Source: Candidatus Eiseniibacteriota bacterium (GTDB lineage: Bacteria; Eisenbacteria; RBG-16-71-46; SZUA-252). Taken from it: a stretch of 36,921 bases of DNA. The notes under the pieces were generated by a model, which saw only the letters and a list, made by a program, of their open reading frames with translations, ran no database searches and was not told the DNA's origin. A program made the position numbers and the translations under genes. The DNA is taken from assembly GCA_031370645.1 (NCBI GenBank), contig JANMQV010000223.1:1-36921 (forward strand). Direction: 5' to 3'. This document shows, piece by piece, positions 8,847 through 30,873 of the stretch; position 1 is the stretch's first letter; every line of letters begins with the position of its first letter.

Positions 8847-11422
8847 CGACGTCCGTCGAACTCACCTGGGCTCTGGCCGCGTCCGCCATCCTCCTCTTCG
8901 AGGAAGGGCGTCGCCGCCGCACGCTTAGCCGCGACCTCCGCGGGCTTCGCTCGTCGCTCGAGGCGGCCGTGCAGCGGAACGACCAGCTCTCGACCGCGGC
9001 CGAAGAGATGGGCCGACTCTACCGCGACCAGCTCCTCACCAGCCGGCAGCGCGCCGGCCGGCTCCGGAAAGTGCTCGAAATCGCGACCTCCATCAATTCG
9101 AACCTCTCCCTCGACAAGGTGCTCCACGAGATCGTGCACGCGGTGCGCGACGCCGTCGGGTATCGGATCGTCCTTCTCCGCGTGTTGAACGCGCGAAGCG
9201 GCGCCTACGAAGCGCGCTCCTTCGCCGGTCTCGACCGCGACGCGATCACGAAGCTCGAGGAGTACGACGTGAAGAAGGAGGAGTTCGAATCGTGGCTGCG
9301 CGACGAATTCAAGATCGGCCGCGCCTACTTCATCCCGCACGACCGGAAATTCTGGGGCGAAGTCGATCCGAACAGCTACACCCCCGACTTGGGCGAGCGT
9401 GCCGCGGGAGAGTGGCACCAGGAGGACGTGCTCTTCGTCCCGCTACGCGGCAAGGAGGGGGGGCAGATCGGATACCTCTCGGTGGACGATCCGTCCGACC
9501 GGAAGCGCCCCACGCGGGAAATCGTCGAGATGCTGGAGATCCTTGCGAGCCACGCCGTCGTGGCGCTCCAGAACGCGGCGCTCATGGAGCGGCTCCAGGA
9601 GAGCATGGGCCGCTTGGAAGAGGCGACGGAACGCGCCGAGGAGCTGAACGAGCTGAAGTCGAACTTCGTCTCCACGATCTCGCACGAGTTGCGAACGCCG
9701 CTCACGAGCATCCACGCCTACGTGGAGGCGCTCCAGCAGAACGTGGGGAGTACGAACCTCGGCATGCAGCGCGACTTCCTCCGTGTCATCGACGAGCAGA
9801 GCGAGAAGTTGAAGCGCCTGATCGACGCGATTCTCGACCTCACGCAGTTGGAGTCGGGGCGGTTCCGAATGGCCCGTGAGCCGTTCAACGTCGTGGAGGT
9901 CGTGGACGAGGTGGTTGGCATCCTGAAACCACTGGCCGAGCCGAAGCGCATCGCGTTGACCGCCGTGCGCGAAAACAGCGAAGTCGTCCTCGAGGCGGAC
10001 CGCACGCTCGTCCGCCGCGTCCTTCACAACCTCGGCATCAACGCGGTGACGTTTACGCCTGATGGAGGTGCGGTGACGTTCCGCGTCCGAAGCGAGGGTC
10101 GAAACGTTCAGATCATCGTGGAGGACACGGGGATCGGCATCGCACCGGGCGACATTCAACGGGTGTTCGACAATTTCTACCAGATCGACAGCGGTCCGTC
10201 GCGCGAGTACCCGGGCGTGGGGCTCGGGCTTTCGATCGCGAAGAGCATCGTGGAGTGGCACGGCGGCGACATCACCGCCGACAGCGAGCCGGGGCATGGC
10301 GCCCGTTTCACGGTGACGCTACCGGCCACGCCGAGCGACGCGAGCGTCATTACCCACGCCACGTGGTCTCCGGCCCGCTCGGTCTCCGATCACCTCACGC
10401 GCCTCACGGTGGAGATGGTGGCTGAGGTCATGAACGCCGGCATCACCTCCCTCATGCTGGTGGACGGCGAGAAGGAAGAGCTCTACATCAAGGCGGCGCG
10501 CGGCCTCCGGGAAGAGGTCGTCTGCGGAACGCGGATCAAGATGGGCGACTCGATCGCCGGATGGGTGGCGAAGCACGGCCAGCCGCTCCTCGTCACGAAC
10601 ATCGAGGACGATCCGCGCTTCGGCCGCCGGAATCACCACCAGTACGAGACGAAGTCGCTTCTCTCGGTCCCGATGAAGGTCGGCGACCGTGTCATCGGCG
10701 TCATCAACATCAACAACAAGATCTCCTGCACGCCCTTCACCGAGGACGACCAGTCGCTCCTGACCTCGCTGGCGGAGCGCGTGGCGCGCGCTTGGGAGCA
10801 CGCCGAGGCGCACGAGGCGACCGCCGACCAGGCCGAGCAGGCGACGAAGGCCATGTCGGCGATCATCGACCACTCGCGTCGGAGCCGCCTCCGCCTCACG
10901 GCGGGGACGATGGCCGCCCGGGCGACCGCCGTGGGCCGCCGCCTCGGCCTGAACGAGGAAGAGACGCGGATCCTGGCTTACGCCGCGACGATCCACGACG
11001 TCGGCATGGCGCACGTTTCGCCCGGAATCCTCCACGAGCCGGGTCAACTCGACCCCGAAACGTGGGCTCAGGTCGCCCAACATCCAATTCGTGGCGTGGA
11101 ATTGATGAAACCGATCGAGTTCCAGTCGCAAGTGTCCGAAATCATTCTGGCACACCACGAGCGGATGGACGGCCGGGGCTACCCGCGAGGCCTCTCCGGA
11201 GACGAGATTCCGGTCGCGTCCCGGATCATCGCGGTGGTGGATGCCTACGAATCGATGACGCTCGGGCGCCCCTATCGGCTCCCGATGACGCACGACGAAG
11301 CGATTGCGGAACTGAACCGCTGCGCGGGAACGCAATTCGATCGACAGGTGGTCGAAGTGTTCGTGCAAATAGTTGCGACAGTTGAGGATACAAGGCTCAT
11401 TCGGGCTCCAGAAGCGGCGTGA
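8843..11422 (+). CDS. GAF-HisKA-HATPase-GAF-HD-GYP hybrid sensor kinase (copy 2), short N-terminal hydrophobic segment
   Basis: SHELRTPL, NLGINA, DTGIGI, GVGLGL; HDVG, HHERMDGRGYP, RPYR, GTQFD. GTGA overlap and GGAGG SD. Confidence 0.92.
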   Translation: MTTSVELTWALAASAILLFEEGRRRRTLSRDLRGLRSSLEAAVQRNDQLSTAAEEMGRLYRDQLLTSRQRAGRLRKVLEIATSINSNLSLDKVLHEIVHAVRDAVGYRIVLLRVLNARSGAYEARSFAGLDRDAITKLEEYDVKKEEFESWLRDEFKIGRAYFIPHDRKFWGEVDPNSYTPDLGERAAGEWHQEDVLFVPLRGKEGGQIGYLSVDDPSDRKRPTREIVEMLEILASHAVVALQNAALMERLQESMGRLEEATERAEELNELKSNFVSTISHELRTPLTSIHAYVEALQQNVGSTNLGMQRDFLRVIDEQSEKLKRLIDAILDLTQLESGRFRMAREPFNVVEVVDEVVGILKPLAEPKRIALTAVRENSEVVLEADRTLVRRVLHNLGINAVTFTPDGGAVTFRVRSEGRNVQIIVEDTGIGIAPGDIQRVFDNFYQIDSGPSREYPGVGLGLSIAKSIVEWHGGDITADSEPGHGARFTVTLPATPSDASVITHATWSPARSVSDHLTRLTVEMVAEVMNAGITSLMLVDGEKEELYIKAARGLREEVVCGTRIKMGDSIAGWVAKHGQPLLVTNIEDDPRFGRRNHHQYETKSLLSVPMKVGDRVIGVININNKISCTPFTEDDQSLLTSLAERVARAWEHAEAHEATADQAEQATKAMSAIIDHSRRSRLRLTAGTMAARATAVGRRLGLNEEETRILAYAATIHDVGMAHVSPGILHEPGQLDPETWAQVAQHPIRGVELMKPIEFQSQVSEIILAHHERMDGRGYPRGLSGDEIPVASRIIAVVDAYESMTLGRPYRLPMTHDEAIAELNRCAGTQFDRQVVEVFVQIVATVEDTRLIRAPEAA

Positions 11423-11433
11423 TGCGCCGATAC
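11407..11433 (+). promoter_or_regulatory. Putative sigma28 (FliA/WhiG)-type promoter
   Basis: TCCAG-N14-GCCGATAC, 35 nt upstream of the single-domain response regulator start. Confidence 0.5.
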
Positions 11434-11468
11434 ATTTCATTATGACTGCCGTTGGGGGAGGTGATCGG

Positions 11469-11873
11469 ATGTCGAAGGGACGGATCCTCGTCGTGGATGA
11501 CGAGATCTACATCGTCCACATTCTCGACTTCAGCCTTGGCATGGAAGGCTACGAGGTCCTGACCGCGTTGGATGGCGAGCAGGCTCTCGAGCGGCTGAAG
11601 AGCGACAAACCCGATCTCATCGTCCTCGACATCATGATGCCGAAGGTCGACGGTTACGAAGTCTGTCGGACGATCAAGGCGAATCCGGAGACGCAGCATA
11701 TTCCGGTCATCTTGCTCTCGGCCAAGGGGCGGAACGTCGATCAGAAGATGGGATTCGACGTCGGCGCCGACGACTACATCACCAAGCCGTTTTCGCCTCG
11801 GAAGTTGGTGGAGCGGATTAACGCTCTGCTGGGGCAGACGGTTTCGGAGAAGACGAACACTTCCTCCTCGTAG
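11469..11873 (+). CDS. Single-domain response regulator (REC only)
   Basis: MSKGRILVVDDE...VLDIMMP...LLSAK...ITKPF with no output domain. ATG at 11469 follows GGGGGAGG; the ORF-track start at 11373 is probably too long. Confidence 0.93.
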   Translation: MSKGRILVVDDEIYIVHILDFSLGMEGYEVLTALDGEQALERLKSDKPDLIVLDIMMPKVDGYEVCRTIKANPETQHIPVILLSAKGRNVDQKMGFDVGADDYITKPFSPRKLVERINALLGQTVSEKTNTSSS

Positions 11874-11902
11874 CTGATTAGGTGGGGTCCTGCGTAGTAC
11901 CC

Positions 11903-11974
11903 GGGGCACGGGGGTCGATCCCTTGCTGGCCCCAAACTAACAGGGGCCTGCAAGGGATCGACGCCCCGCGCCCC
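11903..11974. repeat. Long imperfect inverted repeat (terminator or REP-like hairpin)
   Basis: GTCGATCCCTTGC-T-GGCCCC / GGGGCC-T-GCAAGGGATCGAC arms around a 9-nt loop, extendable by GGGGCAC/GCGCCCC. Confidence 0.7.
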
Positions 11975-12102
11975 TCACCCTCCTCGGTACCCGCCCTCTC
12001 TCCAAGTTGCGTTTGTGCCATCCATAACTCACAGCTCCTATCCGGCTTTGCTTCGCTCGCCTCTCTTCGGTGACGCTTCCGCTGGTGTTACTCTCGCTCC
12101 TC

Positions 12103-14133
12103 ATGCGCCTTGTTCGTGTCGCCGTACCTGTCCCCATTCCTGATCAGGAACATCTCGTCTATGGGTTTCCCGACGACGAGGTGATCGTGGCTGGGCTTCG
12201 CGTGCTTGTTCCGATGCGGGCTCGGCAGGTTTGGGGGACGGTGCTCGGGGCGGAGCCGGCTCGGGCGGAGGCGCCTAAGTACAAGGTCCGGGCGATTTCG
12301 GGGATCCCGGAGCCGCGGCTGGTGCTCAGCGCGGAGATCCTCTCGCTCGCGGCCTGGGTTGCCGATTACTACGCGGCTACGCTTGGCGAGGTGCTGCATG
12401 CGGCGGCGCCTTCACCTACCGGACTGAAGCGCCGGGCCGCTCGCGCGGCGCAGCCTACGGAAGAGGGGTGGCATGCGGCGCCTCCTCCGGAGCGCGCGGC
12501 GCTGAATGACGAACAGACGGCGGCGCTGGTAGCGATAGAAACGGGGATCGCCTCGCAGGCCTTCGCGCCGTTCCTCCTTCATGGCGTTACCGGTAGCGGG
12601 AAGACGGCGGTTTATCTGCATGCGGCGCGCGCGGCCATCGCTGCCGGCGGCCAAGCGCTCATCCTTGTTCCGGAGATCGCGCTCTCGCCTCAGGCGCTCG
12701 ACGCGTTTCGTCGCGCCGGATTCGAGCGCCTTGCTGTCTATCACAGCGGGCTTCTTCCTCGAGAACGCGCGGATGTTTGGCGCGGCGTCGCCGACGGCAC
12801 GATCGACCTCGTCGTCGGGACGCGCTCGGCTGTCTTCCTTCCGTTCCCGAATCTTCGCCTCACGGTCGTCGATGAAGAACAAGACGGCGCCTACAAGCAG
12901 GACGAGTCACCTCGGTACCAAGCGCGCGACGTGGCGCTCGTTCGCGCGCAGCGGGCTGGCCGCGCCGTGCTCCTCGCAACGGCGACGCCAAGTCTCGAGA
13001 GTTACTCGCAGGCCGCGCGCGGCGCCTACCAGCTCCTGACGCTTCACAACCGCGTCGACGGCCGGCCGATGGCGACCGTAAGACTCGCCGATCTCCGCGG
13101 TGCATCGAAGCCTGCGGCCATCGATCGCTCCGGCTCTCGCTTCCTCACCCAAGCCCTGAGCGACGCCATCACGCGCACGCTCGAGCGCGGGGAGCAGGGG
13201 ATTCTCTTCCTCAACCGCCGCGGGCACTCGACCTACCTTCAGTGCCGCGGCTGCGGGCATGTGGCGAAGTGCGACCGTTGCGACGTTCCCTACACCGTCC
13301 ACTCCGACGAGAACATCCTCCGCTGCCACTACTGCGGCGTGCGGCGGAAAGTCCCTCAGGCGTGCGGCGAATGTCACGCCGCGGATCTTTGGTTCGGCGG
13401 GCTCGGCATTCAGAAAGTCGAACGCGAGATGGAGCGGCTCTTCCCGAAGGCGCGCCTCGCGCGGCTCGACCTCGACTCGGTGCGGAAGCGCGGTTCCGCC
13501 GCATCCATCCTTCAAGCCTTCCGCAAGCGCGAGACCGATCTTCTCCTCGGCACCCAAATGGTGACGAAGGGATTCGACTTTCCCGGCGTGACGTTGGTCG
13601 GCGTCATCGTGGCCGATCTCTCGCTCTACCTTCCCGATTTCCGGGCGGCGGAGCGGACCTTCCAACTGCTCACACAGGTGGCGGGACGTGCCGGCCGCGG
13701 CGACATGCCCGGTGAGGTGATCATGCAGTCGTACGATCCGGAGCATCCCGCGCTCCAGGCGGCGGCCGCGCAGGACTACGCCGCCTTCTTTGCGAAGGAG
13801 GCGGAAGAGCGGAAGGAACTTCACTACCCTCCCTACGGTCGCCTGGTCGAGATCGAACTTCGCGGAAAGAAGTCGGACCGGGTGCAGGCACTCGGTGATG
13901 CCATCCGACGGATCGTGACCAAAGCCGCCGGCGACCGCACCGTCGAGATCCTCGGCCCGACCCCGAAACCGCTCGCTAGGCTCAAGGGGGAAGAGCGCTG
14001 GCACCTGCTATTAAGGAGCGCCTCCCGGACGGCCCTCCGCCAGACGCTGGCGGCCGCCCTCCCCAGGCTCCGCGACCTGCGCCACCCGGGCACACGCTGG
14101 GCGGTCGACGTGGACCCCTACCAGTTGCTGTAA
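12103..14133 (+). CDS. priA: Primosomal protein N' (replication restart helicase)
   Basis: GVTGSGKT, LVPEIAL, VGTRSA, DEEQD, four CxxC zinc pairs, GTQMVTKGFDF, QVAGRAGR, DVDP C-terminus. ATG at 12103 (MRLVRVAVP) chosen as start. Confidence 0.97.
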   Translation: MRLVRVAVPVPIPDQEHLVYGFPDDEVIVAGLRVLVPMRARQVWGTVLGAEPARAEAPKYKVRAISGIPEPRLVLSAEILSLAAWVADYYAATLGEVLHAAAPSPTGLKRRAARAAQPTEEGWHAAPPPERAALNDEQTAALVAIETGIASQAFAPFLLHGVTGSGKTAVYLHAARAAIAAGGQALILVPEIALSPQALDAFRRAGFERLAVYHSGLLPRERADVWRGVADGTIDLVVGTRSAVFLPFPNLRLTVVDEEQDGAYKQDESPRYQARDVALVRAQRAGRAVLLATATPSLESYSQAARGAYQLLTLHNRVDGRPMATVRLADLRGASKPAAIDRSGSRFLTQALSDAITRTLERGEQGILFLNRRGHSTYLQCRGCGHVAKCDRCDVPYTVHSDENILRCHYCGVRRKVPQACGECHAADLWFGGLGIQKVEREMERLFPKARLARLDLDSVRKRGSAASILQAFRKRETDLLLGTQMVTKGFDFPGVTLVGVIVADLSLYLPDFRAAERTFQLLTQVAGRAGRGDMPGEVIMQSYDPEHPALQAAAAQDYAAFFAKEAEERKELHYPPYGRLVEIELRGKKSDRVQALGDAIRRIVTKAAGDRTVEILGPTPKPLARLKGEERWHLLLRSASRTALRQTLAAALPRLRDLRHPGTRWAVDVDPYQLL

Positions 14134-22083: not shown

Positions 22084-23988
22084 ATGCGCCCCGTCGTCAT
22101 CGGAACCGCGGGGCACATCGATCACGGCAAGACCGCACTTGTTCGCCGCCTCACCGGCATCGACACCGACCGGCTGAAGGAGGAGCGCGAGCGCGGCATC
22201 TCCATCGACCTCGGTTTCGCGCACCTGGCGCTCCCCTCGGGGCGCCGGGTGGCGATCGTCGACGTGCCGGGTCACGAACGCTTCGTGAAGAACATGCTCG
22301 CGGGCGCCACCGGCATCGACATCGTGCTCCTCGTCGTCGCCGCCGACGAGGGTGTCATGCCGCAGACGCGCGAGCACCTCGCCATCGTCGAACTGCTCGA
22401 CGTTCGTCGCGGCGTCGTCGCCCTCACCAAGTCGGATCTCGTGGCGCCCGAACTGCTCGACGCGGCTCGCGACGAAGTAGCGTCGCTCCTCGCGCCGGGT
22501 CCTCTCGGCGGCGCGCCGATCGTCCCCGTATCGTCCGTCACGGGCGACGGCATCCCCGCACTACTGGCCGCGCTCGAATCGGCCGTGGCGGCACTCCCCG
22601 AACGCGGCGCCGACGGTCCCGCGCGCCTTCCGGTCGATCGCGTCTTCTCCATCGAAGGAATCGGCACCGTCGTGACCGGCACGCTCTGGAGCGGCGCGAT
22701 CCATCCGGGCGACACGCTCGAACTGCTTCCGAATCGCAGGGAGGTACGCGTTCGTCAAGTGGAGGTGCACGACCAGCCGGTGCCGCAGGTGATCGCGGGG
22801 CAGCGAAGTGCCGTGGCCATTCATGGCGTGAATCGCCAGGACGTCTCGCGCGGCGAGTGGCTCGTGACGCCGGGGCGTTTTCTTGCGACTACAGTCGTGG
22901 ACGTGCGGCTTCGCCTTCTCGGCACGGCCGGACGCACCTTCGAGGACCGAACGCGGGTGCGCGTCCACCTGGGCGCGAGCGAGACCCTGGCGCGCGTCGT
23001 GCTGGTGGAAGGGGCGCCGCTCGAGCCGGGGGAGATCGCGCTCGCGCAACTTCGCCTGGAGGAGCCGGTGGTGGCGATCCCCGGCGACCGCCTCGTCCTT
23101 CGCGCCTATTCGCCGGCGGTGACGATCGCGGGAGCGGTGGTGCTCGACGCGCACGCGGAGAAGCGCGCACGCCTGAGCGACGCCGCGCGGCGGCGACTCG
23201 AGACGTTCGAGAAGGGGACGCTCGCCGAGCGGATCATGGTCCTCGCCGCGGAGGCGGAGGGAGCCGGCGTGAAGGCGGCGGATGCGGCGCTTCGCTTCGC
23301 CGTCTCGCCCGAAGCCGCGACGGAAGCGGCGCGCGCCGCGAAAGGGCTTCGCGCACTCCGCGACGGCCGCTACCTGACCGAAGCCGCGTGGAAGGGAACC
23401 GTGGAGCGGATCTCGGCGGCGGTGGCCCGATACGCGGAGACGCACAAACTAAGAGAGGGAATCGGGAAGGGAGAGTTGAAGAGTCTCCTGGCGCGCGACA
23501 TCGATGGGAGCATCTTCGACGAAGCGCTCGATTCGCTGACCGCCGCGAAATCCCTAGCGGTCCGAGGCGACCGGGTCGCCCTGCCCGACGCCGGACCGGT
23601 CTTGACCCCCGACCAGGCGCGCGCCGTCGCCGAGATGGAGCGACGACTCGGGGCGGGGGGCTACTCGGTCCCCGAGGTGCCCGAACTTCTGAAGGGGGTC
23701 GCCCCGGCCCTCAAGCCGCAGGAGCTGCTGCGGTACCTCCTCGAGTCGGGGAGGGTGGTGAAGATCACGGCCGACTTGATCTACCCGACGGAACGCTGGT
23801 CGGAGCTGGAAGCCAAGGTGCGGCAATACTTTTCAGGAAATCCAGATCTCTCCATGGCGGCCTTCAAGGAACTCTTCCAGGTCTCCCGGAAGTACTCGAT
23901 TCCGATCCTCGAACACCTCGACCGGACGGGCCTGACCCGTCGGCAGGGGGACGTCCGCGTGGCCGGGCCGCGCCTCCGGCAGCCGTAG
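22084..23988 (+). CDS. selB: Selenocysteine-specific translation elongation factor SelB
   Basis: [35 protein letters not shown]-terminal winged-helix [21 protein letters not shown]. Confidence 0.96.
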
Positions 23989-24010: not shown

Positions 24011-24039
24011 TTGAAGCCCAGACCCCAATGTGCTATCCT
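24011..24039 (+). promoter_or_regulatory. sigma70 promoter for the propeptide/TPR-bEBP unit
   Basis: TTGAAG-N17-TATCCT with extended -10 TG (24031-24032). Confidence 0.65.
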
Positions 24040-24140
24040 AACCAACGCACGAAGGGCAGCCGCCCCTCGCGCCCAAACCGCCCGAGGTCGCGTCGTGGTC
24101 GCGATCTCCCTCTGGACCTCCATCAGAAGGTGACGCGGAC

Positions 24141-24470
24141 ATGGGCCCTCGAATTCGTTCCCTCCGACTTGCGCTTTCGGCCGCCATGCTCATCGTGCTG
24201 ACCGCGCTTCCCGGCGTTTGGCTTTCCCAGACCCCTGGAAACGCGTTCGGTCCCGCCACGGCATGGGCAGGCGGAACGCCCGATGAGACGCTGAGCCCTC
24301 CGCCGATTCCGCCGAAGAAGGCGAGTGCCCTCGGCAGGCGGTTGGACTTCGGTACCACGACGCCTGGCAGGGCGATCGGCGATCGGATCGAGCGGAAGAC
24401 GCCGATCTCGACGATCGATCGATTCCGGGCGCTCTGGACGATCGTGCGCGCGACCACCCTCAGGATGTAG
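24141..24470 (+). CDS. Small exported protein, candidate signalling propeptide (109 aa)
   Basis: AGAAGG SD-like; basic N-terminus plus hydrophobic core (LALSAAMLIVLTALPGVWL); AWA signal-peptidase-like site before GGTPDETL; Pro-rich linker; amphipathic C-terminal helix. Lies between a promoter and the bEBP gene. Confidence 0.7.
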   Translation: MGPRIRSLRLALSAAMLIVLTALPGVWLSQTPGNAFGPATAWAGGTPDETLSPPPIPPKKASALGRRLDFGTTTPGRAIGDRIERKTPISTIDRFRALWTIVRATTLRM

Positions 24471-24543
24471 AGCCGAAAACCGAGACCACGGGGACGGGAC
24501 GCCGGCGCGAGCCAATGGGACCGCCGGCCTCCAAGGACGAACG

Positions 24544-27015
24544 GTGGACAAGACAACGGCAGCGTTGATCCGGGAACGCGAGGAGGCGGTCACGACCGCC
24601 CGCCTGGCACAGGATGGCGCTCGGCAACTTCAATCGCTCGAAGATCTCGCGGAGATATTTCTGCGCGCCGATTCGTACCTTCCGGCGCTCCAGAATCTCG
24701 AAGAGTGCATTCAGTCGGCCGAGCGGCTCGGTCTCGACGGCGCCCGCATCGCGGCGCTCGAGATCAAGGTGGCCCAGGTCCTCATCGAGAAGGGCGACGC
24801 CGCCGCGGCGCTCCGCCACCTGGCCCGCGCTCGCGCTCGCTCCATCGCCGAACCGAACCCCGAACTCATGGCGCGCGTCTATCTGCAGAACGCCCGCGCG
24901 CTCATCGAACTCTCGCAGTACGAGGAGGCGCTCTCCACCTGCGAGCGCGCTTTCGCCATCTTCAAGGAACGAAATCTCCTCGCCCCGCTCGCCCACACGT
25001 ACAACTGTTTCGGCCGAATCTACTATCGTCTCGGCGAGTTGGACCGCGCGAAGGAGTACTACGAAGCCGCGCTTCATCTCTTCCGCTGGGATCTGAACGA
25101 CGAGGAGGGCGTCATCCGCGCCCACAACAACCTCGGCGTTCTCTATCGTCATCTCTCCGACTGGCGTCAGTCGGTATGGCATCTCCTCCGCTCCATGGAA
25201 TTGAGTCAACGCCTCGGTAACTTCGCTCACCTCGCCGTATCGAACGCCAACCTCGGCAACGTCCACCTGAAAGCCGGCACCTGGGATGAGGCGCGGGAGC
25301 ACTACGATCGCGCGCTGATCGCCTACGTGCAGATCGGCCGCGACGCGGGCGTGGCCCGTATGCGGACCGGCCTCGCGACGATCGCCACCTATCGCCACGA
25401 TTTCGCGGCGGCGGAGGTGCACCTGGCGGCGGCGCACCAGATCACGGCGCGTCTCGGCAACTCGCGCGAAGCGGCGCTCGTTCTCTTCGGGCAGGCTGAA
25501 CTGCAGCACGAGCGCGGCCAGTTGGAAGCGGCGCTTCGCCTCTACGACGAATCGCTGGACGTGGCGCGCGAGATCGCGCCCGAAGGCGACATGGTCGGCG
25601 AACTCCAGCGGAAGCGGGCGGAAGTGCTGGCACTTCGCGGCGATCTTCCGTCGGCCTTGAAGGCCGCGGAGGACGCGCTCCAGCGCGCGAAGCGGCTCGG
25701 CGACCAGTTGGAAGAGGGAGCCGCGCGCCGTGTGCTCGCCGTCCTTCACGCCCAGGACGGGCGGCTGGTGGAGGCCCATACCGAGTCGCGCGAGGCGATC
25801 CGCATTCTCGAGTCGATCCACGAGCGGATGGAGCTGGCTCGCGCCTATCTCGACCTGGCGCGCCGGATGCCCCGCGAGGGAGATCCCGAGCGCCTCCGTG
25901 AAGCGCAGAATCTCGCCTTCAAGGCGATGTACCTCTTCGAGCAACTCGGCATGGAAGACTCCATGCGCGCGGCCGAGACCGCGCTCCGCGAGCTGAACGC
26001 GCCGGCGTGGCTCACGTCGCCGCGCGGCGGACGTCCTTCGCCGCCGCCGATCGCGGCCCAGGCGCAGGAAGTCGCGCGGGCGCACGGTGTCGTGACGGAG
26101 AATCAGCGCACGCTCGACGTGGTGCGTAAGGCGTCCGAACTCCTCGCGACCCCGGCCCGCTGCCTCATCCAGGGCGAGACGGGCGTCGGCAAGAATCTCC
26201 TCGCCTACATGTTCCGTCAGTACGAGATCGAGCGCGGCCACCCGTTCGTGGAAGTGAATTGCACGAGCCTCCCGGGCGACCTGGTCGAGAGCGAACTATT
26301 CGGCTACGTGCGGGGGGCCTTCACGGGAGCCGCCATCTCGAAGCGCGGGATCTTCGAGGAAGCCGACGGCGGGACGATCTTCCTGAACGAAATCGGCGAA
26401 CTGACCGAGCGCACTCAGGTGAAACTGCTCCAAGTATTGGACGACGGTACCTATCGCCGCTTGGGCGAGGTGCGGGCCCGTCGCTTGAACGTCCGCATCA
26501 TCTCCGCCACGAACAAGGATCTCGATACCGCCGTGAAGGCGGGCTGGTTCCGCGCCGACCTCTACTACCGGCTCGGACAGGTCGTGCTCTCGCTTCCGCC
26601 GCTTCGCGAGCGCCGCGAGGACATCCCGCTTCTCATTCGCGGCTTCCTGGATGAACTGGCGGTGCGCGAGGGGCGGACAGTCGTGCTGGCGGAAGACGCG
26701 ATGGAGTACTTGGCGTCGCTGCCGTGGCTCGGCAACATTCGCGAGCTGAAACACAAGATCGAGAGCATCTTCCTCTGCGCGGGGAAGCAGGAGGTGGTCG
26801 ATCGCGCCATGCTCCTGAAGCTTCTCCATCCGGGCGGTTCGGCGCCGGCGTCGGAAGCGCCCTCCACGCGGGGACTCCGCCGGAAGGTCGACATGCTGAA
26901 GCGCGAGGAGGTCCTCGCGGCCCTTTCCCGGAACGGCGGCAACCGCAGCCGCGCCGCACTCGAGTTAGGCATCACCCGCCGGCATCTCATCCGGCTCCTC
27001 AAGCAGATCTACTAG
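24544..27015 (+). CDS. TPR-domain sigma54-dependent transcriptional activator (bEBP; TPR-AAA+-Fis HTH)
   Basis: About 480 aa of TPR repeats (e.g. AHTYNCFGRIY, AHNNLGVLY, NANLGNVH); GETGVGK, ESELFG...GAFTGA, FLNEI, FRADLYYRL, WLGNIREL; HTH NRSRAALELGI. GTG 24544 after AAGGA chosen as start. Confidence 0.93.
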   Translation: MDKTTAALIREREEAVTTARLAQDGARQLQSLEDLAEIFLRADSYLPALQNLEECIQSAERLGLDGARIAALEIKVAQVLIEKGDAAAALRHLARARARSIAEPNPELMARVYLQNARALIELSQYEEALSTCERAFAIFKERNLLAPLAHTYNCFGRIYYRLGELDRAKEYYEAALHLFRWDLNDEEGVIRAHNNLGVLYRHLSDWRQSVWHLLRSMELSQRLGNFAHLAVSNANLGNVHLKAGTWDEAREHYDRALIAYVQIGRDAGVARMRTGLATIATYRHDFAAAEVHLAAAHQITARLGNSREAALVLFGQAELQHERGQLEAALRLYDESLDVAREIAPEGDMVGELQRKRAEVLALRGDLPSALKAAEDALQRAKRLGDQLEEGAARRVLAVLHAQDGRLVEAHTESREAIRILESIHERMELARAYLDLARRMPREGDPERLREAQNLAFKAMYLFEQLGMEDSMRAAETALRELNAPAWLTSPRGGRPSPPPIAAQAQEVARAHGVVTENQRTLDVVRKASELLATPARCLIQGETGVGKNLLAYMFRQYEIERGHPFVEVNCTSLPGDLVESELFGYVRGAFTGAAISKRGIFEEADGGTIFLNEIGELTERTQVKLLQVLDDGTYRRLGEVRARRLNVRIISATNKDLDTAVKAGWFRADLYYRLGQVVLSLPPLRERREDIPLLIRGFLDELAVREGRTVVLAEDAMEYLASLPWLGNIRELKHKIESIFLCAGKQEVVDRAMLLKLLHPGGSAPASEAPSTRGLRRKVDMLKREEVLAALSRNGGNRSRAALELGITRRHLIRLLKQIY

Positions 27016-27068
27016 TCCCGAAGCCCCGCTCCACCGCATCGACTCCCGTGCCCCAAACCGAGCCGTAG

Positions 27069-27186
27069 GTGTGACATGAAGGTCGCGTTTCCCCCTATGG
27101 GGTGGGACATATTGGCAACCCGCTCTGCGCTAATGGCTTGGCGTTATGTGGGGGTGTCGAAGTGTGACATTCGTGTCCAGTGTGAC
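27069..27186 (+). promoter_or_regulatory. Candidate bEBP enhancer (UAS) repeats
   Basis: GTG(T/G)GAC at 27069, 27102, 27162 and 27180; the first three continue AT. Two form partial palindromes (GTGAC-atgaag-GTCGC; GACA-ttcg-TGTC). Confidence 0.55.
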
Positions 27187-27298
27187 CCCGCAAGGCGACG
27201 TCCCAGCCTCTGAACCGACGTCTGCGGCGCCCACGCAACCCTTTCTACTGCATAGTCTTGAATCTCATTTTCACGATCTGGTCGATTCAAGCCATGGG

Positions 27299-27314
27299 CG
27301 GCACGTCGGATGCA
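27299..27314 (+). promoter_or_regulatory. sigma54 (-24/-12) promoter
   Basis: CGGCACGTCGGATGCA: GG-N10-GC spacing with GGCACG and TGCA consensus blocks, directly downstream of a bEBP gene. Confidence 0.72.
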
Positions 27315-27324
27315 ATGGAACAGG

Positions 27325-27473
27325 GTCAACGCAAGGCTTTGAAGGGCCGCGGAGGGTGGGGAGCTCTCAGAAGACGCCAAATGTAGAGCTAACCCTCTTC
27401 CCTTCGTCCTCTGGACTAAAGGCTCCTGTATTGACTCTCACTGGGTGCCTCATCTCCCGCGGCCTTAGTTTTT
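27325..27473 (+). ncRNA. Putative sigma54-dependent structured small RNA (~150 nt)
   Basis: Predicted +1 near 27325; 27343-27361 pairs with 27448-27466 (18 of 19 pairs, 4 G-U); internal hairpins; ends in TTTTT; no credible ORF downstream of the promoter. Confidence 0.6.
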
Positions 27474-27516
27474 ACAACACAGGATGGGTCCCCCCCACCC
27501 GCGTTTCGCACCGCAT

Positions 27517-29034
27517 CTAGCTCGACACCTCGCGATCGTCGGCCGTGCCTGTTTCGCCGCCCTTCAGCAGCATGGGGCGGACTAGAAGCTCGCGTTCGCG
27601 TGTCGCCAGGGCCTGCCCCGGCTTACCGCGTCTCGGCTTCGAAACGAACTTTCGCTCGGTATAGATAACTGGGACCCGCGACAGCTTCCGTGCCTTGCTG
27701 AAGTAGGCGGCCGTGGCGGCCGCCTCCTCAAGCGTCCGAGGTTTGGGGACAGCGGTCCGCGTCGGCCGGCGCAGGATCACGTGGGAACCCGGTACCCCCA
27801 CGACGTGGAACCAATAGTCGTGGGGTTGGCTTAGGCGGTGGGTGATCAGGTCGTTCTCGGTGTTGTTCCGACCGACCCAGAGTGTCCACCCATCGCTCGT
27901 GAAAAGCGTCCTTGGCCTGATTGAACGGTGCGCCCCTGGAGATCGGTGCTCTGGACGTTCCGCGCGGGGCGGCGTGGAGGATTGCCGTGAAGAACGGTTC
28001 CCCTGTCGCTCGCCCCGTGCACTTAAATCGAGAGCTGCTGACTTGAAGAACGCGTCGAGAGACGCGAGCGCTTCCTTCGGCGGCAAGTCATAGACGGCGC
28101 GGCGGACGTCGGCGCAAGCCGCGAGATTCTTCCGAGTATCGGCGAGACGACGCATCACCAGCGAGAGACCCCGCTCGCCCTTCTTAGCCCTCTGGAAGAG
28201 CCGCGCCGCGTTGTCCTGAGGGGAAAGGGCCGGGTCCAGCACGAGACGGACCCGGGCACCCGGCGAGTCCGCGTACGGATCGGGGAGTTCGGCGTGGCTC
28301 GCCCCCCTCTGAATGTCTTTGTAGTACGTCAGCAACAGTTCCCCCCGCCGACGGTCGAGGAGACGATCCTCGGCCGCCTTTTTGTCTCCCTCCTGCGCCT
28401 TCTCGCGCCGCGTGAGGATCCGCTCCGACTCCTTGAGGTGCCGGTCGAGCGTGTGGCGGAAGTCGTCCTGGAACGCCTTCTCGATGCGGCCGCGGAACGA
28501 CTCGAGCGCCGCGTCGTCACCCCGCGCGAGGAGCACGATCGCCGCGGGGCGTGCAAGGCTCGACGTGGAAGGCGGCGCTGTGGTCGCGCCATCCGCCGCG
28601 GCCTCTTCCTTCCGATCCAGCGCCCAGATCACGCGGTTCTCCTCCGCCAGGCGAAGCGAGAATGCGATGCGCGGCCCCTCCGCGGAGAGCGACAGGCGAT
28701 GCGTCTCCACGCCGGCTTCGGCGCCGTCTCCCGGCGCCGCGAGCGAGAAGAGAACCTCTCCCGCCATTCCCTCCGTTGCCTCCGCGCGAAGGAGATGCAA
28801 TCCGCGAAGCGGCCTCTCCAGCCCTCCGTAGGGAGTGCCGCGAGGGTCGGGAGAGATCGGCATCTTGTCGGCGAGCGCCAGCGTCGCGCGCTTCGCCTCG
28901 AGGAAGATCCAGATGAAGGCGCGCGGCGTTCCGTCGAACGCGAGCGCGATGGCGCGCGGCCCGAGCGGCACGACGCCGGTGAGGCGCCGGCCTTCCAGGG
29001 AATCGAAGCCGTGTGCCATCGGGCCGCCGCTCAC
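27517..29034 (-). CDS. NFACT/Rqc2-family (RqcH/FbpA-like) protein with divergent N-terminal domain
   Basis: GELL...LDPALSPQDNAARLFQRAKK middle region; NFACT-R motifs VGRNNTENDLIT, WFHV..VPGSHV, AAYFSKAR, VSKPRRGKPG. Start GTG 29034 (coupled) or ATG 29019. Confidence 0.88.
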   Translation of the reverse strand: MSGGPMAHGFDSLEGRRLTGVVPLGPRAIALAFDGTPRAFIWIFLEAKRATLALADKMPISPDPRGTPYGGLERPLRGLHLLRAEATEGMAGEVLFSLAAPGDGAEAGVETHRLSLSAEGPRIAFSLRLAEENRVIWALDRKEEAAADGATTAPPSTSSLARPAAIVLLARGDDAALESFRGRIEKAFQDDFRHTLDRHLKESERILTRREKAQEGDKKAAEDRLLDRRRGELLLTYYKDIQRGASHAELPDPYADSPGARVRLVLDPALSPQDNAARLFQRAKKGERGLSLVMRRLADTRKNLAACADVRRAVYDLPPKEALASLDAFFKSAALDLSARGERQGNRSSRQSSTPPRAERPEHRSPGAHRSIRPRTLFTSDGWTLWVGRNNTENDLITHRLSQPHDYWFHVVGVPGSHVILRRPTRTAVPKPRTLEEAAATAAYFSKARKLSRVPVIYTERKFVSKPRRGKPGQALATRERELLVRPMLLKGGETGTADDREVSS

Positions 29035-30836
29035 CGCGCAGCGCCGGTCGGGGGAGAGGTCTCAGTCCGGAGCGAATCCATCTCCGAAGGAACCCCGAGC
29101 TGGGCGCTCAAGCGCCGGAGATTGTTGATCGCGTCGGGATATCCGGGAAGCGCGTCGAGAGCGCGGCGGTAGGCGATGAGGGCTTCGTCGGTCCGTCCCA
29201 TCTGCTCGAGCACCGCGCCCAAGTTGTTCTCCGCCTGCGCCAGGCTGGGCATCCGTTGGAGCGCGGCTTGGTAGGCGACGGCCGCGGAATCGGGCCTGCC
29301 GGCGTGCGCGTGAAGATTCCCGAGCGCGTACAAGCCGGGCGCGTAGTCGGGGCGGATCGCGGTCAGTTGCCGGACGTGGACGAAGGCGGAGTCGCGCTGA
29401 CCCATTTCGTCCTCGGCCGCGACGAGGTTCAGGAGAAGTTCGCCCGCATGCTCCGGCGCGAGTTCGATGGCGCGGCGATAGTGAATGGCGGCGCCTTCCA
29501 AGTCGCGCTGCTTGTACTGGAATCCTCCGACGATCGCTTGGACGTGCGGCGATTCGGGGGAGTCGCGGAGCATCGATTGGTAAAGCGTCCCCTCGTCGCG
29601 CCAGATCGCGACGCGCGGCCAGAGGACGGCGCCGAACCCTACCGAAACCCCGAAGATCGCCCCCATGAAGATCCCGCCGAACCGGCTGGCGTTCGTCCGC
29701 GCGGCGGGCTTCGACCGGCGGCCGCCGGAGGCGCCGGCGGGCAGGAGGAGCGCCGCGCACGCGAGCGCGATTCCGAGCGTGAGCGCGGCACTCGGAACGA
29801 AAAGGAATCGCTCCGCGACAAGCGCGCCGGAGAGGAGCTTCACGTAGCAAACGGGGAGGAGTGTCGCCACGAAGAGCGCGAGCGGGACGCTCCAGGGCGA
29901 ACGGCTGCGAAGCGTCATCCAGAGCCCCGTCGCGAGAGCGGCAAGGATCAAGACCCCCGCCACGAAACTCACGTCGGGCGACTGAATGGCCGCGATCTCA
30001 TGTCGCGCGGACAGGTGGATCGGCATGAGCAGGAGCGGCACGTAGCGCGCCACGACCGCGACGCTCGTGAGAATCTGCGCCGTCGCTCCCTCCACGGGCG
30101 AGATGCCCGGGATCGGGTTTGACCCGAGCACCATGAATCGCGTGATCAGGTAAGTGGCGACCACCACCACGACAACGCCCGACGCGCGCGCCAGGTCGCG
30201 GCCGGAAATCTTTCGATCCGAGACCCAGAGCGCCAGCAAGAGAATCGGCGCCCCGAAGAGCGCGACTTCCTTCGAGAAGAGCCCCGGCAGAAGAATCGCC
30301 GCCGCCGGCGCGAGTTTCCACGTCGGATTCTGGATCGTCCGTCCGAATCGCACCGCGGCCCAGAGCGCCGCGAAGAGAAAAAGCGCCGCCTGCACGTCGG
30401 TTCGCCCGGAGATGAACGCGACACTCTCCGCGTGCGCCGGATGAAGCGCGAACACCATCGTGCCGAGCGCGGCCGCCAAGGGCCAGCCGGAGAGCTCCCA
30501 CGCGAAGAGCCAGAGAAAGAGACAGGCGGCTGCGTAGAGCAGCACATTCGTGCGGTGAAATCCGCGCGGATTCTCTCCGGAGGAGGCGCGGTCGAGCGCG
30601 AGGGAGTAGAGGACCGCGGGGCGGAAGTAGTTCCGCGTCATCGCCTCGTCCTTCAGGAATTGATCGAACGGTGTTTTCCAAAGCCGCGCCAGGTCCGAGG
30701 GGCCGTGAACGTCCAACGCGGGGCCGATCAAGTACGCGTCGTCCCAAACGAATTGGTAGTCGAGCGTTCGCGCGTACGGCACGACGGCGGCGGCCAGAAT
30801 GAGAAGGGCGAGAAGGAGAAGGAACCAGCGCTTCAT
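29031..30836 (-). CDS. TMTC-like GT-C membrane glycosyltransferase with C-terminal TPRs
   Basis: FVWDD acidic loop after TM1, YFRP, FALHPAHAESVAFISGR, SKE, AERFLFVPS, WRDE..L; multiple TM helices followed by TPR repeats. Confidence 0.85.
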   Translation of the reverse strand: MKRWFLLLLALLILAAAVVPYARTLDYQFVWDDAYLIGPALDVHGPSDLARLWKTPFDQFLKDEAMTRNYFRPAVLYSLALDRASSGENPRGFHRTNVLLYAAACLFLWLFAWELSGWPLAAALGTMVFALHPAHAESVAFISGRTDVQAALFLFAALWAAVRFGRTIQNPTWKLAPAAAILLPGLFSKEVALFGAPILLLALWVSDRKISGRDLARASGVVVVVVATYLITRFMVLGSNPIPGISPVEGATAQILTSVAVVARYVPLLLMPIHLSARHEIAAIQSPDVSFVAGVLILAALATGLWMTLRSRSPWSVPLALFVATLLPVCYVKLLSGALVAERFLFVPSAALTLGIALACAALLLPAGASGGRRSKPAARTNASRFGGIFMGAIFGVSVGFGAVLWPRVAIWRDEGTLYQSMLRDSPESPHVQAIVGGFQYKQRDLEGAAIHYRRAIELAPEHAGELLLNLVAAEDEMGQRDSAFVHVRQLTAIRPDYAPGLYALGNLHAHAGRPDSAAVAYQAALQRMPSLAQAENNLGAVLEQMGRTDEALIAYRRALDALPGYPDAINNLRRLSAQLGVPSEMDSLRTETSPPTGAAR

Positions 30837-30843
30837 GCGGGCC

Positions 30844-30873
30844 ACGTTAGGGAGCGGGCGCCAATGGGGTCAA
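30844..30873 (-). promoter_or_regulatory. sigma70 promoter for leaderless TMTC-like/rqcH-like transcript
   Basis: On the minus strand TTGACC-N18-TAACGT, 7 nt before ATG 30836. Confidence 0.6.

Follow-up and report, generated by a model that had tools for sequence, protein, structure and literature searches.

Introduction

Activators of sigma-54-dependent transcription are usually switched by phosphorylation or by small-molecule domains. LuxO of Vibrio and CbrB of Pseudomonas, for example, are phosphorylated response regulators fed by membrane kinases, and each is encoded adjacent to the gene for an Hfq-dependent RNA, Qrr and CrcZ respectively. This small regulatory RNA (sRNA) is the main direct output of the activator, and Qrr carries quorum information in Vibrio. 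A comparable arrangement is described here for a cassette located within a stretch of DNA of 36,921 nucleotides (nt; hereafter the window, contig JANMQV010000223.1 of assembly GCA_031370645.1) from a Candidatus Eiseniibacteriota bacterium. Within 3.5 kb the cassette comprises a promoter, two genes, enhancer-like repeats, a predicted sigma-54 promoter and a non-coding RNA. The two genes encode a small exported protein and a sigma-54 activator which, unlike LuxO and CbrB, carries an array of tetratricopeptide repeats (TPR). The RNA has no sequence or model similarity to Qrr or CrcZ.

The arrangement also resembles nla19-Pxr of Myxococcus xanthus, where an intergenic region with an enhancer and a sigma-54 promoter separates the sigma-54 activator gene from the sRNA gene that directly follows it. 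This region is 262 nt long in nla19-Pxr, compared with approximately 310 nt in the cassette, and Pxr exists as a long form and a processed short form (PMC5568312). Something like the short form is hinted at in the cassette, where RNA contigs begin at the core of the element and not at its predicted start. Nla19 is a response regulator with a receiver domain, whereas the cassette activator has a TPR array and no receiver, and the Pxr case as described there is without an exported partner gene (PMC5568312). None of the Rfam families, among them Pxr if the release contains it, matches the cassette RNA, and Rfam scans revealed no model-level similarity between Pxr and the cassette RNA. The complement of the Pxr Northern probe, as given in the same source (PMC5568312), contains a run of six C, A and four C that resembles the C-rich hairpin of the cassette at 27486-27500.

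A third point of comparison is provided by the RRNPP systems (Rap-Phr, PlcR-PapR, NprR-NprX and AimR-AimP), in which a Sec-exported small protein is likewise encoded beside a cytoplasmic TPR protein that controls transcription, paralogous pairs occur in one genome and short conserved segments stand out in a fast-evolving propeptide. The effector of RRNPP receptors is a helix-turn-helix (HTH) or a phosphatase where the cassette has an AAA+ sigma-54 activator, and the host of the cassette is a probable diderm outside the Firmicutes. By the criteria of Bernard et al. 2023, propeptides are of 10-100 amino acids (aa), receptors are of 250-500 aa and the TPR lie C-terminal of the effector, an N-terminal position being treated as suspicious (PMC10075063). 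The cassette shares the Sec signal (by inspection), the presence of TPR and direct gene adjacency (20/20 orthologous loci and 28/32 distant or paralogous ones). Measured against the same criteria, its 109-aa propeptide is narrowly too long, its 823-aa activator is outside the range for receptors and its TPR are N-terminal (PMC10075063). We do not regard the cassette as a member of the RRNPP group, though it may work alike.

In the literature searched, mostly at abstract level, no account was found of a sigma-54 activator with TPR that is coupled to an exported protein or to an sRNA, nor of regulation in Eisenbacteria. To our knowledge, no member of Eisenbacteria has been cultured.

Pairing of the exported protein with the TPR activator

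An earlier reading of the window from its sequence alone (the original prediction) had proposed that a 109-aa open reading frame (ORF) with a signal peptide supplies a peptide signal to the activator encoded next to it. That this ORF is a real gene is borne out by its orthologues of 100-111 aa, which lie on the same strand directly upstream of the activator in 20/20 orthologous loci of the family. When public species genomes were searched in the reverse direction, using the small protein alone, the activator adjoined it in all 21 confirmed loci, 15 of which are labelled Candidatus Eisenbacteria and six of which carry other phylum labels.

The pairing extends beyond the orthologues. A set of 32 distant or paralogous loci, made up of TPR activators of other families (28-37% identical) and of paralogues from the same genomes, was screened with a fixed classifier that required an upstream ORF on the same strand whose product is hydrophobic over a stretch near its N-terminus, has an acidic x-P-[DTE] motif and continues for another 25-130 residues. 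The classifier passed 28 of the 32 loci, and the four misses comprised one locus cut by the end of its sequence stretch and three with a look-alike ORF bearing a variant motif. Only two of 394 long genes from the window's genome, used as controls, were passed; one is a second TPR activator (contig C131) and the other is assumed to be that of the window itself. In the loci that passed, the small protein follows a common plan in which the signal peptide is succeeded by G-[DS]-P-[DT], a linker and a tail where Trp, Arg and hydrophobic residues abound, with sequences that differ between paralogues. Each genome holds two to three such paralogous modules. The small protein ranges from 97 to 139 aa in the paralogue set, upstream starts included, and some of the gene junctions are short or overlapping.

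That the pairing has survived deep divergence and duplication argues that the exported protein and the TPR activator are functionally tied, and the pairing is the strongest new result of this analysis. Judged from these genome comparisons, it is clade-wide and therefore wider than the original prediction knew. A lack of the small ORF or of the promoter beside homologous activators, named beforehand as grounds for abandoning the prediction, was looked for, and the outcome did not overturn it.

The second module in the host genome (L053, contig C131, approximately 9535-12228) consists of a gene for a 106-aa signal-peptide protein, with a GDPT motif and a Trp/Arg-rich tail, directly upstream of a TPR sigma-54 activator 31% identical to that of the window. 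A NuoI-like gene follows (translation read by eye), and no sigma-54-like promoter was found within 900 nt downstream.

The small exported protein and the operon leader

The ATG start of the small gene is preceded, at a distance of 7-8 nt, by a GAAGGTGA-like ribosome site in 20/20 loci. Aligned orthologues share a basic N-terminus, a hydrophobic core, a signal-peptidase-type site between AWA and GG, a short motif, a linker and a C-terminal segment; the Sec-type signal peptide was called by inspection of the sequence. The motif, [ST]PDETLxP (SPDETL in the window), is invariant among orthologues, with the AWA site just before it, and AWA[GS]G directly precedes it in most of 120 listed homologues. 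The linker that separates motif and tail is variable and rich in Ser, Thr and Pro. The C-terminal helix ends in Arg, a hydrophobic residue and the stop codon, its last 17-20 residues being conserved, rich in Trp and Arg and in fixed register with the stop. Of the same 120 homologues, 119 have Arg as the second-last residue and 113 end in F, I, M or L, while the C-terminal pentapeptides fall into discrete variants that have the invariant Arg in common. The distance from motif to C-terminus is held between 52 and 68 aa in all 120.

Homologous proteins form 213 clusters, and none of the 120 listed has been given a function or a Pfam domain; the 109-aa protein itself yielded no match in Pfam or NCBIfam. 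AlphaFold2 predicted, with low confidence (mean pLDDT 60), helices at residues 4-22 and 91-108 and disorder elsewhere. Loci of the window's genus that are 94-97% identical in the activator share only 63-68% identity in the small protein. Linker substitutions are evenly distributed over codon positions, indicating nearly neutral change, and a third-position bias is clear in the motif only. Constraint is concentrated in the motif and the tail, and the N-terminal region is conserved like the tail and far more than the linker. An antisense ORF at 24038-24556 showed slightly better codon-position G+C over part of its length, but its ends and length are unconserved. The plus-strand ORF was preferred because its start, ribosome site, length and architecture are all kept.

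The sigma-70 promoter previously assigned to the cassette was borne out in that TTG and TAT recur at the same spacing in 20/20 orthologous loci, though TTGAAG-N17-TATCCT is weak by consensus and lies under the 9-of-12 threshold of the scan tool. The leader downstream of it contains two hairpins whose arms apparently change together between genera (alignment read by eye), which suggests post-transcriptional control of the small ORF. The spacer between the small ORF and the activator gene varies from 30 to 75 nt across the 20 loci. In single-sequence folds, its hairpin abuts the activator ribosome site without covering it.

The TPR sigma-54 activator

Pfam searches and the translation both support the architecture originally proposed for the activator, namely TPR, AAA+ with a GAFTGA loop and HTH, without a REC domain. 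The TPR array occupies approximately aa 30-500 and is followed by the AAA+ domain (approximately aa 517-681), in which the GAFTGA loop is present, a lid and a Fis-type HTH (approximately aa 787-820). E-values in Pfam were 1.3e-56 for Sigma54_activat, 1.7e-39 for TPR_12 and 2.4e-07 for HTH_8. AAA_lid_14 was also matched, the N-terminal half was filled with TPR_12 and TPR_MalT repeats, and no Response_reg domain was found. The protein thus combines the AAA+ GAFTGA and C-terminal HTH of a sigma-54 enhancer-binding protein, and sigma-54 itself is encoded in the genome (rpoN, contig C106; Sigma54_DBD match of 219.6 bits).

Codon-position G+C is 0.73/0.43/0.84 from 24544 onward. On this basis, together with the alignment of 20 orthologues, the GTG at 24544 was taken as the start in preference to the first possible start at 24325. 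Full-length orthologues, 74-97% identical, are present in all 24 other genomes of the same family that were sampled, two of them in pieces at contig ends.

No named subfamily was reached among 25 listed NCBIfam matches, all of which were far under their cut-offs; the best, NifA, scored 261 bits against a cut-off of 528.85 and covered the AAA+ part only. Compared by sequence with solved structures, the TPR region gave generic TPR matches (consensus TPR, Pins/LGN and RapF) that are not diagnostic, the likeness to RapF being weak (E = 3e-11) and one among many. An uncontrolled complex prediction combining the TPR region (aa 1-505) with the mature small protein (aa 44-109) scored 0.00, which is evidence neither way.

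Enhancer-like repeats and the predicted sigma-54 promoter

The upstream-activating-sequence-like repeats of the original prediction correspond to a cluster of GTGACA/TGTCAC-type half-sites that is kept across genera. TGTGACAT occurs at 27070 and 27163, and a palindrome-like GTGACA-N4-TGTCCA at 27165-27180; TGTGACAT is found 10 times in the 3.0-Mb genome, two of these in the cluster. The -24/-12 promoter proposed downstream was confirmed in the comparison, since GGCAC and ATGC of GGCACG-N4-ATGC (27300-27313) are invariant in 25/25 non-redundant loci, and the predicted transcript start lies near 27325. A second candidate, TTGGCAA...TGCG near 27113, was rejected; its -24/-12 spacing is off by one and it is kept within the genus only. 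The sites resembling those for integration host factor (IHF) that had also been noted did not hold up, as the consensus WATCAANNNNTTR found no match in the region with one mismatch allowed.

Two genomes (L052 4379-6270, handle G018, and L039 8791-10173) have other genes, in inserts of 1.6-2.2 kb, that part the activator gene from the enhancer but leave the unit of enhancer, promoter and RNA intact. One of the inserts carries, on the opposite strand, genes for a regulator of the TetR family and for an S41 tail-specific peptidase, the peptidase being a single case that is of note given the conserved free C-terminus of the small protein. The other insert encodes a 460-aa protein with a weak type-IX secretion sorting tail match below cut-off (24.3 vs 27 bits).

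The non-coding RNA

A promoter and an RNA stand behind the activator in 25/25 non-redundant loci with sequence there. The element has a core of approximately 125 nt with long invariant runs and a G+C-rich closing stem, and 27343-27465 is matched by a covariance model derived from 25 sequences. The leader between promoter and core is short in the window's genus and 60-95 nt long and variable elsewhere, and no consensus structure was predicted for it. Beyond the core lies a hairpin, GGG-UCCCC-CCC, invariant in sequence and with outer pairs that vary in step (by eye); it was found 21-34 nt past the core in the six metagenome contigs measured. The word of this hairpin, GGGTCCCCCCC, is unique in the genome. 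Stops occur in all three frames in 22/25 loci.

Searched with the covariance model, 38/40 further genomes of the family yielded a single copy of the RNA each, and 110 genomes drawn from 17 families elsewhere in the class yielded none. Of 120 metagenome stretches retrieved with a loose pattern, nine contained the RNA, all near-identical to known copies; six of these contigs were examined and, in the five with upstream sequence, the promoter lies 77-87 nt before the core. No homologue of the core was found beside the distant activators, the best match (E = 0.03) being a bare hairpin. Rfam 15 gave no match at gathering score in the window; relaxing the limit to E = 5 brought in chance-level matches only, and none on the plus strand of 27300-27510.

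The region is present in RNA libraries. Six metatranscriptome runs contain a small part of it, and contigs of four runs (four study codes) span 27344 to at least 27495 and up to 27631; 27040-27343 is covered by none of the contigs. Those of two runs begin at 27344 without an unmatched end, while in two others the match gives way at this point to a different sequence, as would be the case in relatives whose leader differs. Weakly, this hints that the core starts at a 5' end, perhaps that of a processed form. A T-rich run (27466-27476) directly follows the closing stem of the core in the window and in several other genera, though not in the nearest relatives, and may terminate some transcripts ahead of the C-rich hairpin.

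A structured RNA had been proposed, of which the conserved non-coding element is confirmed and the structure is not. RNAalifold returned a fold in which one long helix encloses three others and 98.2% of cells are paired. This fold is compatible with the alignment but not demonstrated, the family being too uniform for a covariation test. Two other identities were considered. A Y-RNA was dropped for want of a TROVE/Ro60 gene in the 95%-complete host genome, and a CsrA sponge is a remote option, as a CsrA gene exists but only two to three GGA sites were counted in the RNA.

Proposed output of the cassette

These features suggest the following working for the output arm. A sigma-70-type promoter would drive a two-gene operon for the small, Sec-exported and largely disordered protein and the cytoplasmic TPR-AAA+-HTH activator. 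The activator would bind the GTGACA-type repeats, 110-230 nt upstream of the sigma-54 promoter, and open that promoter. The product would be a non-coding RNA of approximately 180 nt, the dedicated and probably the only direct target of the activator, and it may act in trans, its pyrimidine-rich unpaired stretches and C-rich loop pairing with purine-rich ribosome-binding sites. That the activator, through the repeats, drives the sigma-54 promoter with the RNA as its dedicated product is probable on comparative grounds, and the logic originally proposed, from activator to adjacent sigma-54-dependent RNA, is supported by the recurrence of a non-coding RNA behind a predicted -24/-12 promoter in every one of the 25 loci and by the enhancer-like repeats kept across genera.

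Several observations weigh against this account. Covariation in the RNA is no better than in shuffled alignments, with one pair showing a double change, and the folding energy (z-score -1.27) lends the fold no statistical support. The metatranscriptome contigs are unstranded and some bridge into the convergent rqcH gene. Self-regulation through pairing of the RNA with the operon's own leader found no support, since duplex energies in 14 of 15 loci do not surpass those of shuffled sequences (z from -1.1 to +2.0, with one locus at -3.6). Finally, a sigma-54-like promoter was found within 900 nt downstream of only 4/32 distant or paralogous activators. By this comparison the RNA output is not general to the module and is specific to this orthologue group.

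Among these distant loci, L042 (handle G026, contig C170), which belongs to another family and whose TPR activator is 37% identical, has a promoter-like GGCACG-N5-TGC site and behind it a stretch of approximately 125 nt, all at approximately 140-300 nt past the activator stop. The stretch is closed by a clear terminator, a G+C-rich hairpin followed by T residues, and has the look of a small RNA driven by sigma-54 and unrelated to that of the window. Similar promoter-like sites lie behind the activators of L048, L049 and L050.

The element at 27343-27510 could instead belong to rqcH, either as its 3' untranslated region and terminator or as a sigma-54-driven cis antisense RNA. Wherever sequence is available it lies directly against the rqcH stop codon (27517), it stays with rqcH where 1.6-2.2 kb are inserted after the activator gene, RNA contigs bridge the core and rqcH, and the C-rich hairpin scores as terminator-like on the minus strand. 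However, the sigma-54 promoter and the enhancer point into the element and are equally conserved, and an 11-nt sequence invariant across genera is rare for terminators. Moreover, 85 of 772 paired cells are G-U, workable on the plus strand only, as they would be C-A mismatches on the minus strand. The plus strand was favoured because of these G-U cells and the direction of the promoter, and assignment of the element to rqcH is considered very unlikely.

Genomic context and host

The features of the cassette and its neighbours are collected in Table 1. Pfam confirmed the placement originally given, between selB and a convergent NFACT/RqcH-like gene. The window has a G+C content of approximately 68%. 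The interval from selB to rqcH holds two plus-strand genes and a 500-nt gap with a lower G+C of 0.57-0.60; it contains no third long ORF, and a kinase-domain scan of the cassette ORFs was not made. No tRNA or tmRNA was found in the window. Past rqcH, a minus-strand gene (29031-30845) encodes a 604-aa protein with C-terminal TPR repeats (Pfam) and an N-terminal part that reads by eye as a multi-pass membrane domain.

Table 1. Coordinates of the cassette features and flanking genes in the window.
Feature	Position	Strand	Details and basis
selB	22084-23988		upstream neighbour of the cassette; Pfam
Sigma-70-type promoter	24011-24039	+	-35 TTGAAG 24011-24016, 17-nt spacer, -10 TATCCT 24034-24039
Operon 5' leader	24040-24140	+	hairpins; ribosome site GAAGGTGA at 24126-24133; 20-locus alignment
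Gene for 109-aa exported protein	24141-24470	+	kept in 20/20 orthologous loci
73-nt spacer	24471-24543	+	G+C-rich hairpin; activator ribosome site AAGGA 24533-24537
Sigma-54 activator gene	24544-27015	+	823 aa, GTG start; Pfam, codon-position G+C, 20-locus alignment
Enhancer-like GTGACA/TGTCAC half-site cluster	27068-27189	.	conserved blocks in downstream-region alignment
Predicted sigma-54 promoter	27299-27315	+	GG 27300-27301, GC 27312-27313
Non-coding RNA (ends approximate)	27325-27510	+	leader, core 27343-27465, C-rich hairpin 27486-27500
NFACT/RqcH-like gene (rqcH)	27517-29034	-	convergent; Pfam

The host assembly (G000) is 3.0 Mb in size and 95% complete. It contains approximately 20 sigma-54-activator matches and one Opp/Dpp-type binding protein. 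Six Omp85-family matches suggest two membranes, so that the organism is probably diderm, as had been presumed.

Proposed input to the activator

The exported protein was taken as the input of the TPR domain because TPR activators of this kind, paralogues included, carry their own copy of it. In this general form, that the protein is the cognate input or partner of the TPR domain, the claim is evenly balanced. In the more specific form, a processed fragment of the exported protein would reach the cytoplasmic TPR domain by a logic akin to that of RRNPP systems. Re-entry of a fragment in this broad sense is tentatively ranked first among the routes, directly followed by membrane tethering with regulated proteolysis, and is itself doubtful. 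Two points weigh against it: the constant length of the linker suggests that the whole mature protein matters and not just a short peptide, and export and re-import of a peptide are harder if the organism is diderm.

The quorum sensing of the original prediction is one of several readings that fit the data. The protein would be exported and cut, the peptide re-imported by an Opp-type transporter to bind the TPR, and the RNA would report population density. The candidate peptides are the new N-terminus, GG[ST]PDETL..., and the C-terminal residues ending in Arg and a hydrophobic residue. The Sec-type signal peptide with AWA[GS]G before the motif, the adjacency of the gene to that of a TPR receptor, the discrete pentapeptide variants sharing an invariant Arg and the fast evolution outside two short conserved segments are all in keeping with such a signal; so are the weak likeness to RapF and the Opp/Dpp-type binding protein, which is merely permissive. 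Set against these are the probable diderm envelope, the length-constrained linker, the departures from RRNPP dimensions and domain order in receptor and propeptide, and a cassette with neither a processing protease nor a dedicated importer. True quorum sensing is accordingly judged unlikely.

The same low standing is given to an anti-activator or sensor of export status, in which the small protein, at the membrane or prior to export, would keep the activator inactive (or active). The contact would be made by the tail of an uncleaved N-terminal anchor, a signal-peptide remnant or the tail helix, and release of the activator would follow envelope stress or regulated proteolysis, much as in the cases of RseA/sigma-E with its small RNAs, FlgM and ExsE, no cell-to-cell signal being involved. 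One-to-one operons with short or overlapping junctions in paralogues, and paralogue-specific pairs like those of sigma/anti-sigma families, would be expected of such a partner, as would an N-terminal region conserved like the tail. The free C-terminus with its near-constant Arg is the kind of end that is read by PDZ or tail-specific proteases, and in one genome only a gene for an S41 tail-specific peptidase lies between activator and RNA. However, a cytoplasmic tail would measure merely 8-20 residues or so, the site between AWA and GG looks cleavable, and most loci are without a linked site-1 or site-2 protease.

Less probable still is the absence of any link, the small protein being a co-transcribed envelope protein and the TPR responding to some cytoplasmic ligand or protein that has nothing to do with it. 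The partners of TPR arrays are diverse, in line with the generic matches obtained here, and the linker evolves nearly neutrally, but the pairing is kept through deep divergence and duplication, at 28/32 loci against 2/394 controls.

An arrest leader of the SecM, MifM or VemP kind, in which the Trp/Arg-rich C-terminus would stall the ribosome unless export pulls on the chain and so set translation of the activator, with the TPR domain sensing something else, is rated the least probable of these: those leaders likewise have a signal or anchor, a spacer and a conserved Trp/Arg-rich C-terminus in a small ORF upstream of the regulated gene, and the cassette adds a spacer of conserved length and free sequence, last residues in register with the stop and a hairpin before the activator ribosome site, but this hairpin does not clearly hide the site, which is uncovered in single-sequence folds, the downstream gene is a transcription activator and not a Sec, YidC or other export component, two to three paralogous modules per genome are unexpected for an export monitor, and the invariant motif beside the cleavage site is left unexplained.

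Implications

The observations behind the original prediction were largely right, the IHF-like sites and a demonstrated RNA structure being the parts that fail. The best explanation, taken as a whole, is of a vertically inherited unit of one family of the candidate phylum Eisenbacteria that works as outlined above, and this explanation is given an even chance. A bolder proposal, for which the prospects are slim, is that Eisenbacteria run signalling of the RRNPP kind through two to three private channels per genome, each with an exported, processed fragment read by the TPR array of an activator, and that in the present channel the whole output is a single lineage-specific sRNA.

A TPR array paired across a clade with a private, unannotated exported protein would point to an input mechanism that is not described in the literature searched, mostly abstracts. 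If the peptide signal is true, the known range of peptide communication would be widened; this would be the first circuit leading from peptide through TPR and sigma-54 to an sRNA, and RRNPP-like systems would for the first time extend beyond monoderm bacteria and the mobile elements of these. If the exported protein instead serves an envelope or export sensor, the cassette would be a sigma-54 counterpart to the sigma-E/small-RNA envelope response. Being compact and self-contained, the cassette can be rebuilt in a laboratory host. Either way, it would offer a first handle on small-RNA regulation in Eisenbacteria, in a host whose 95%-complete genome yielded no Hfq gene.

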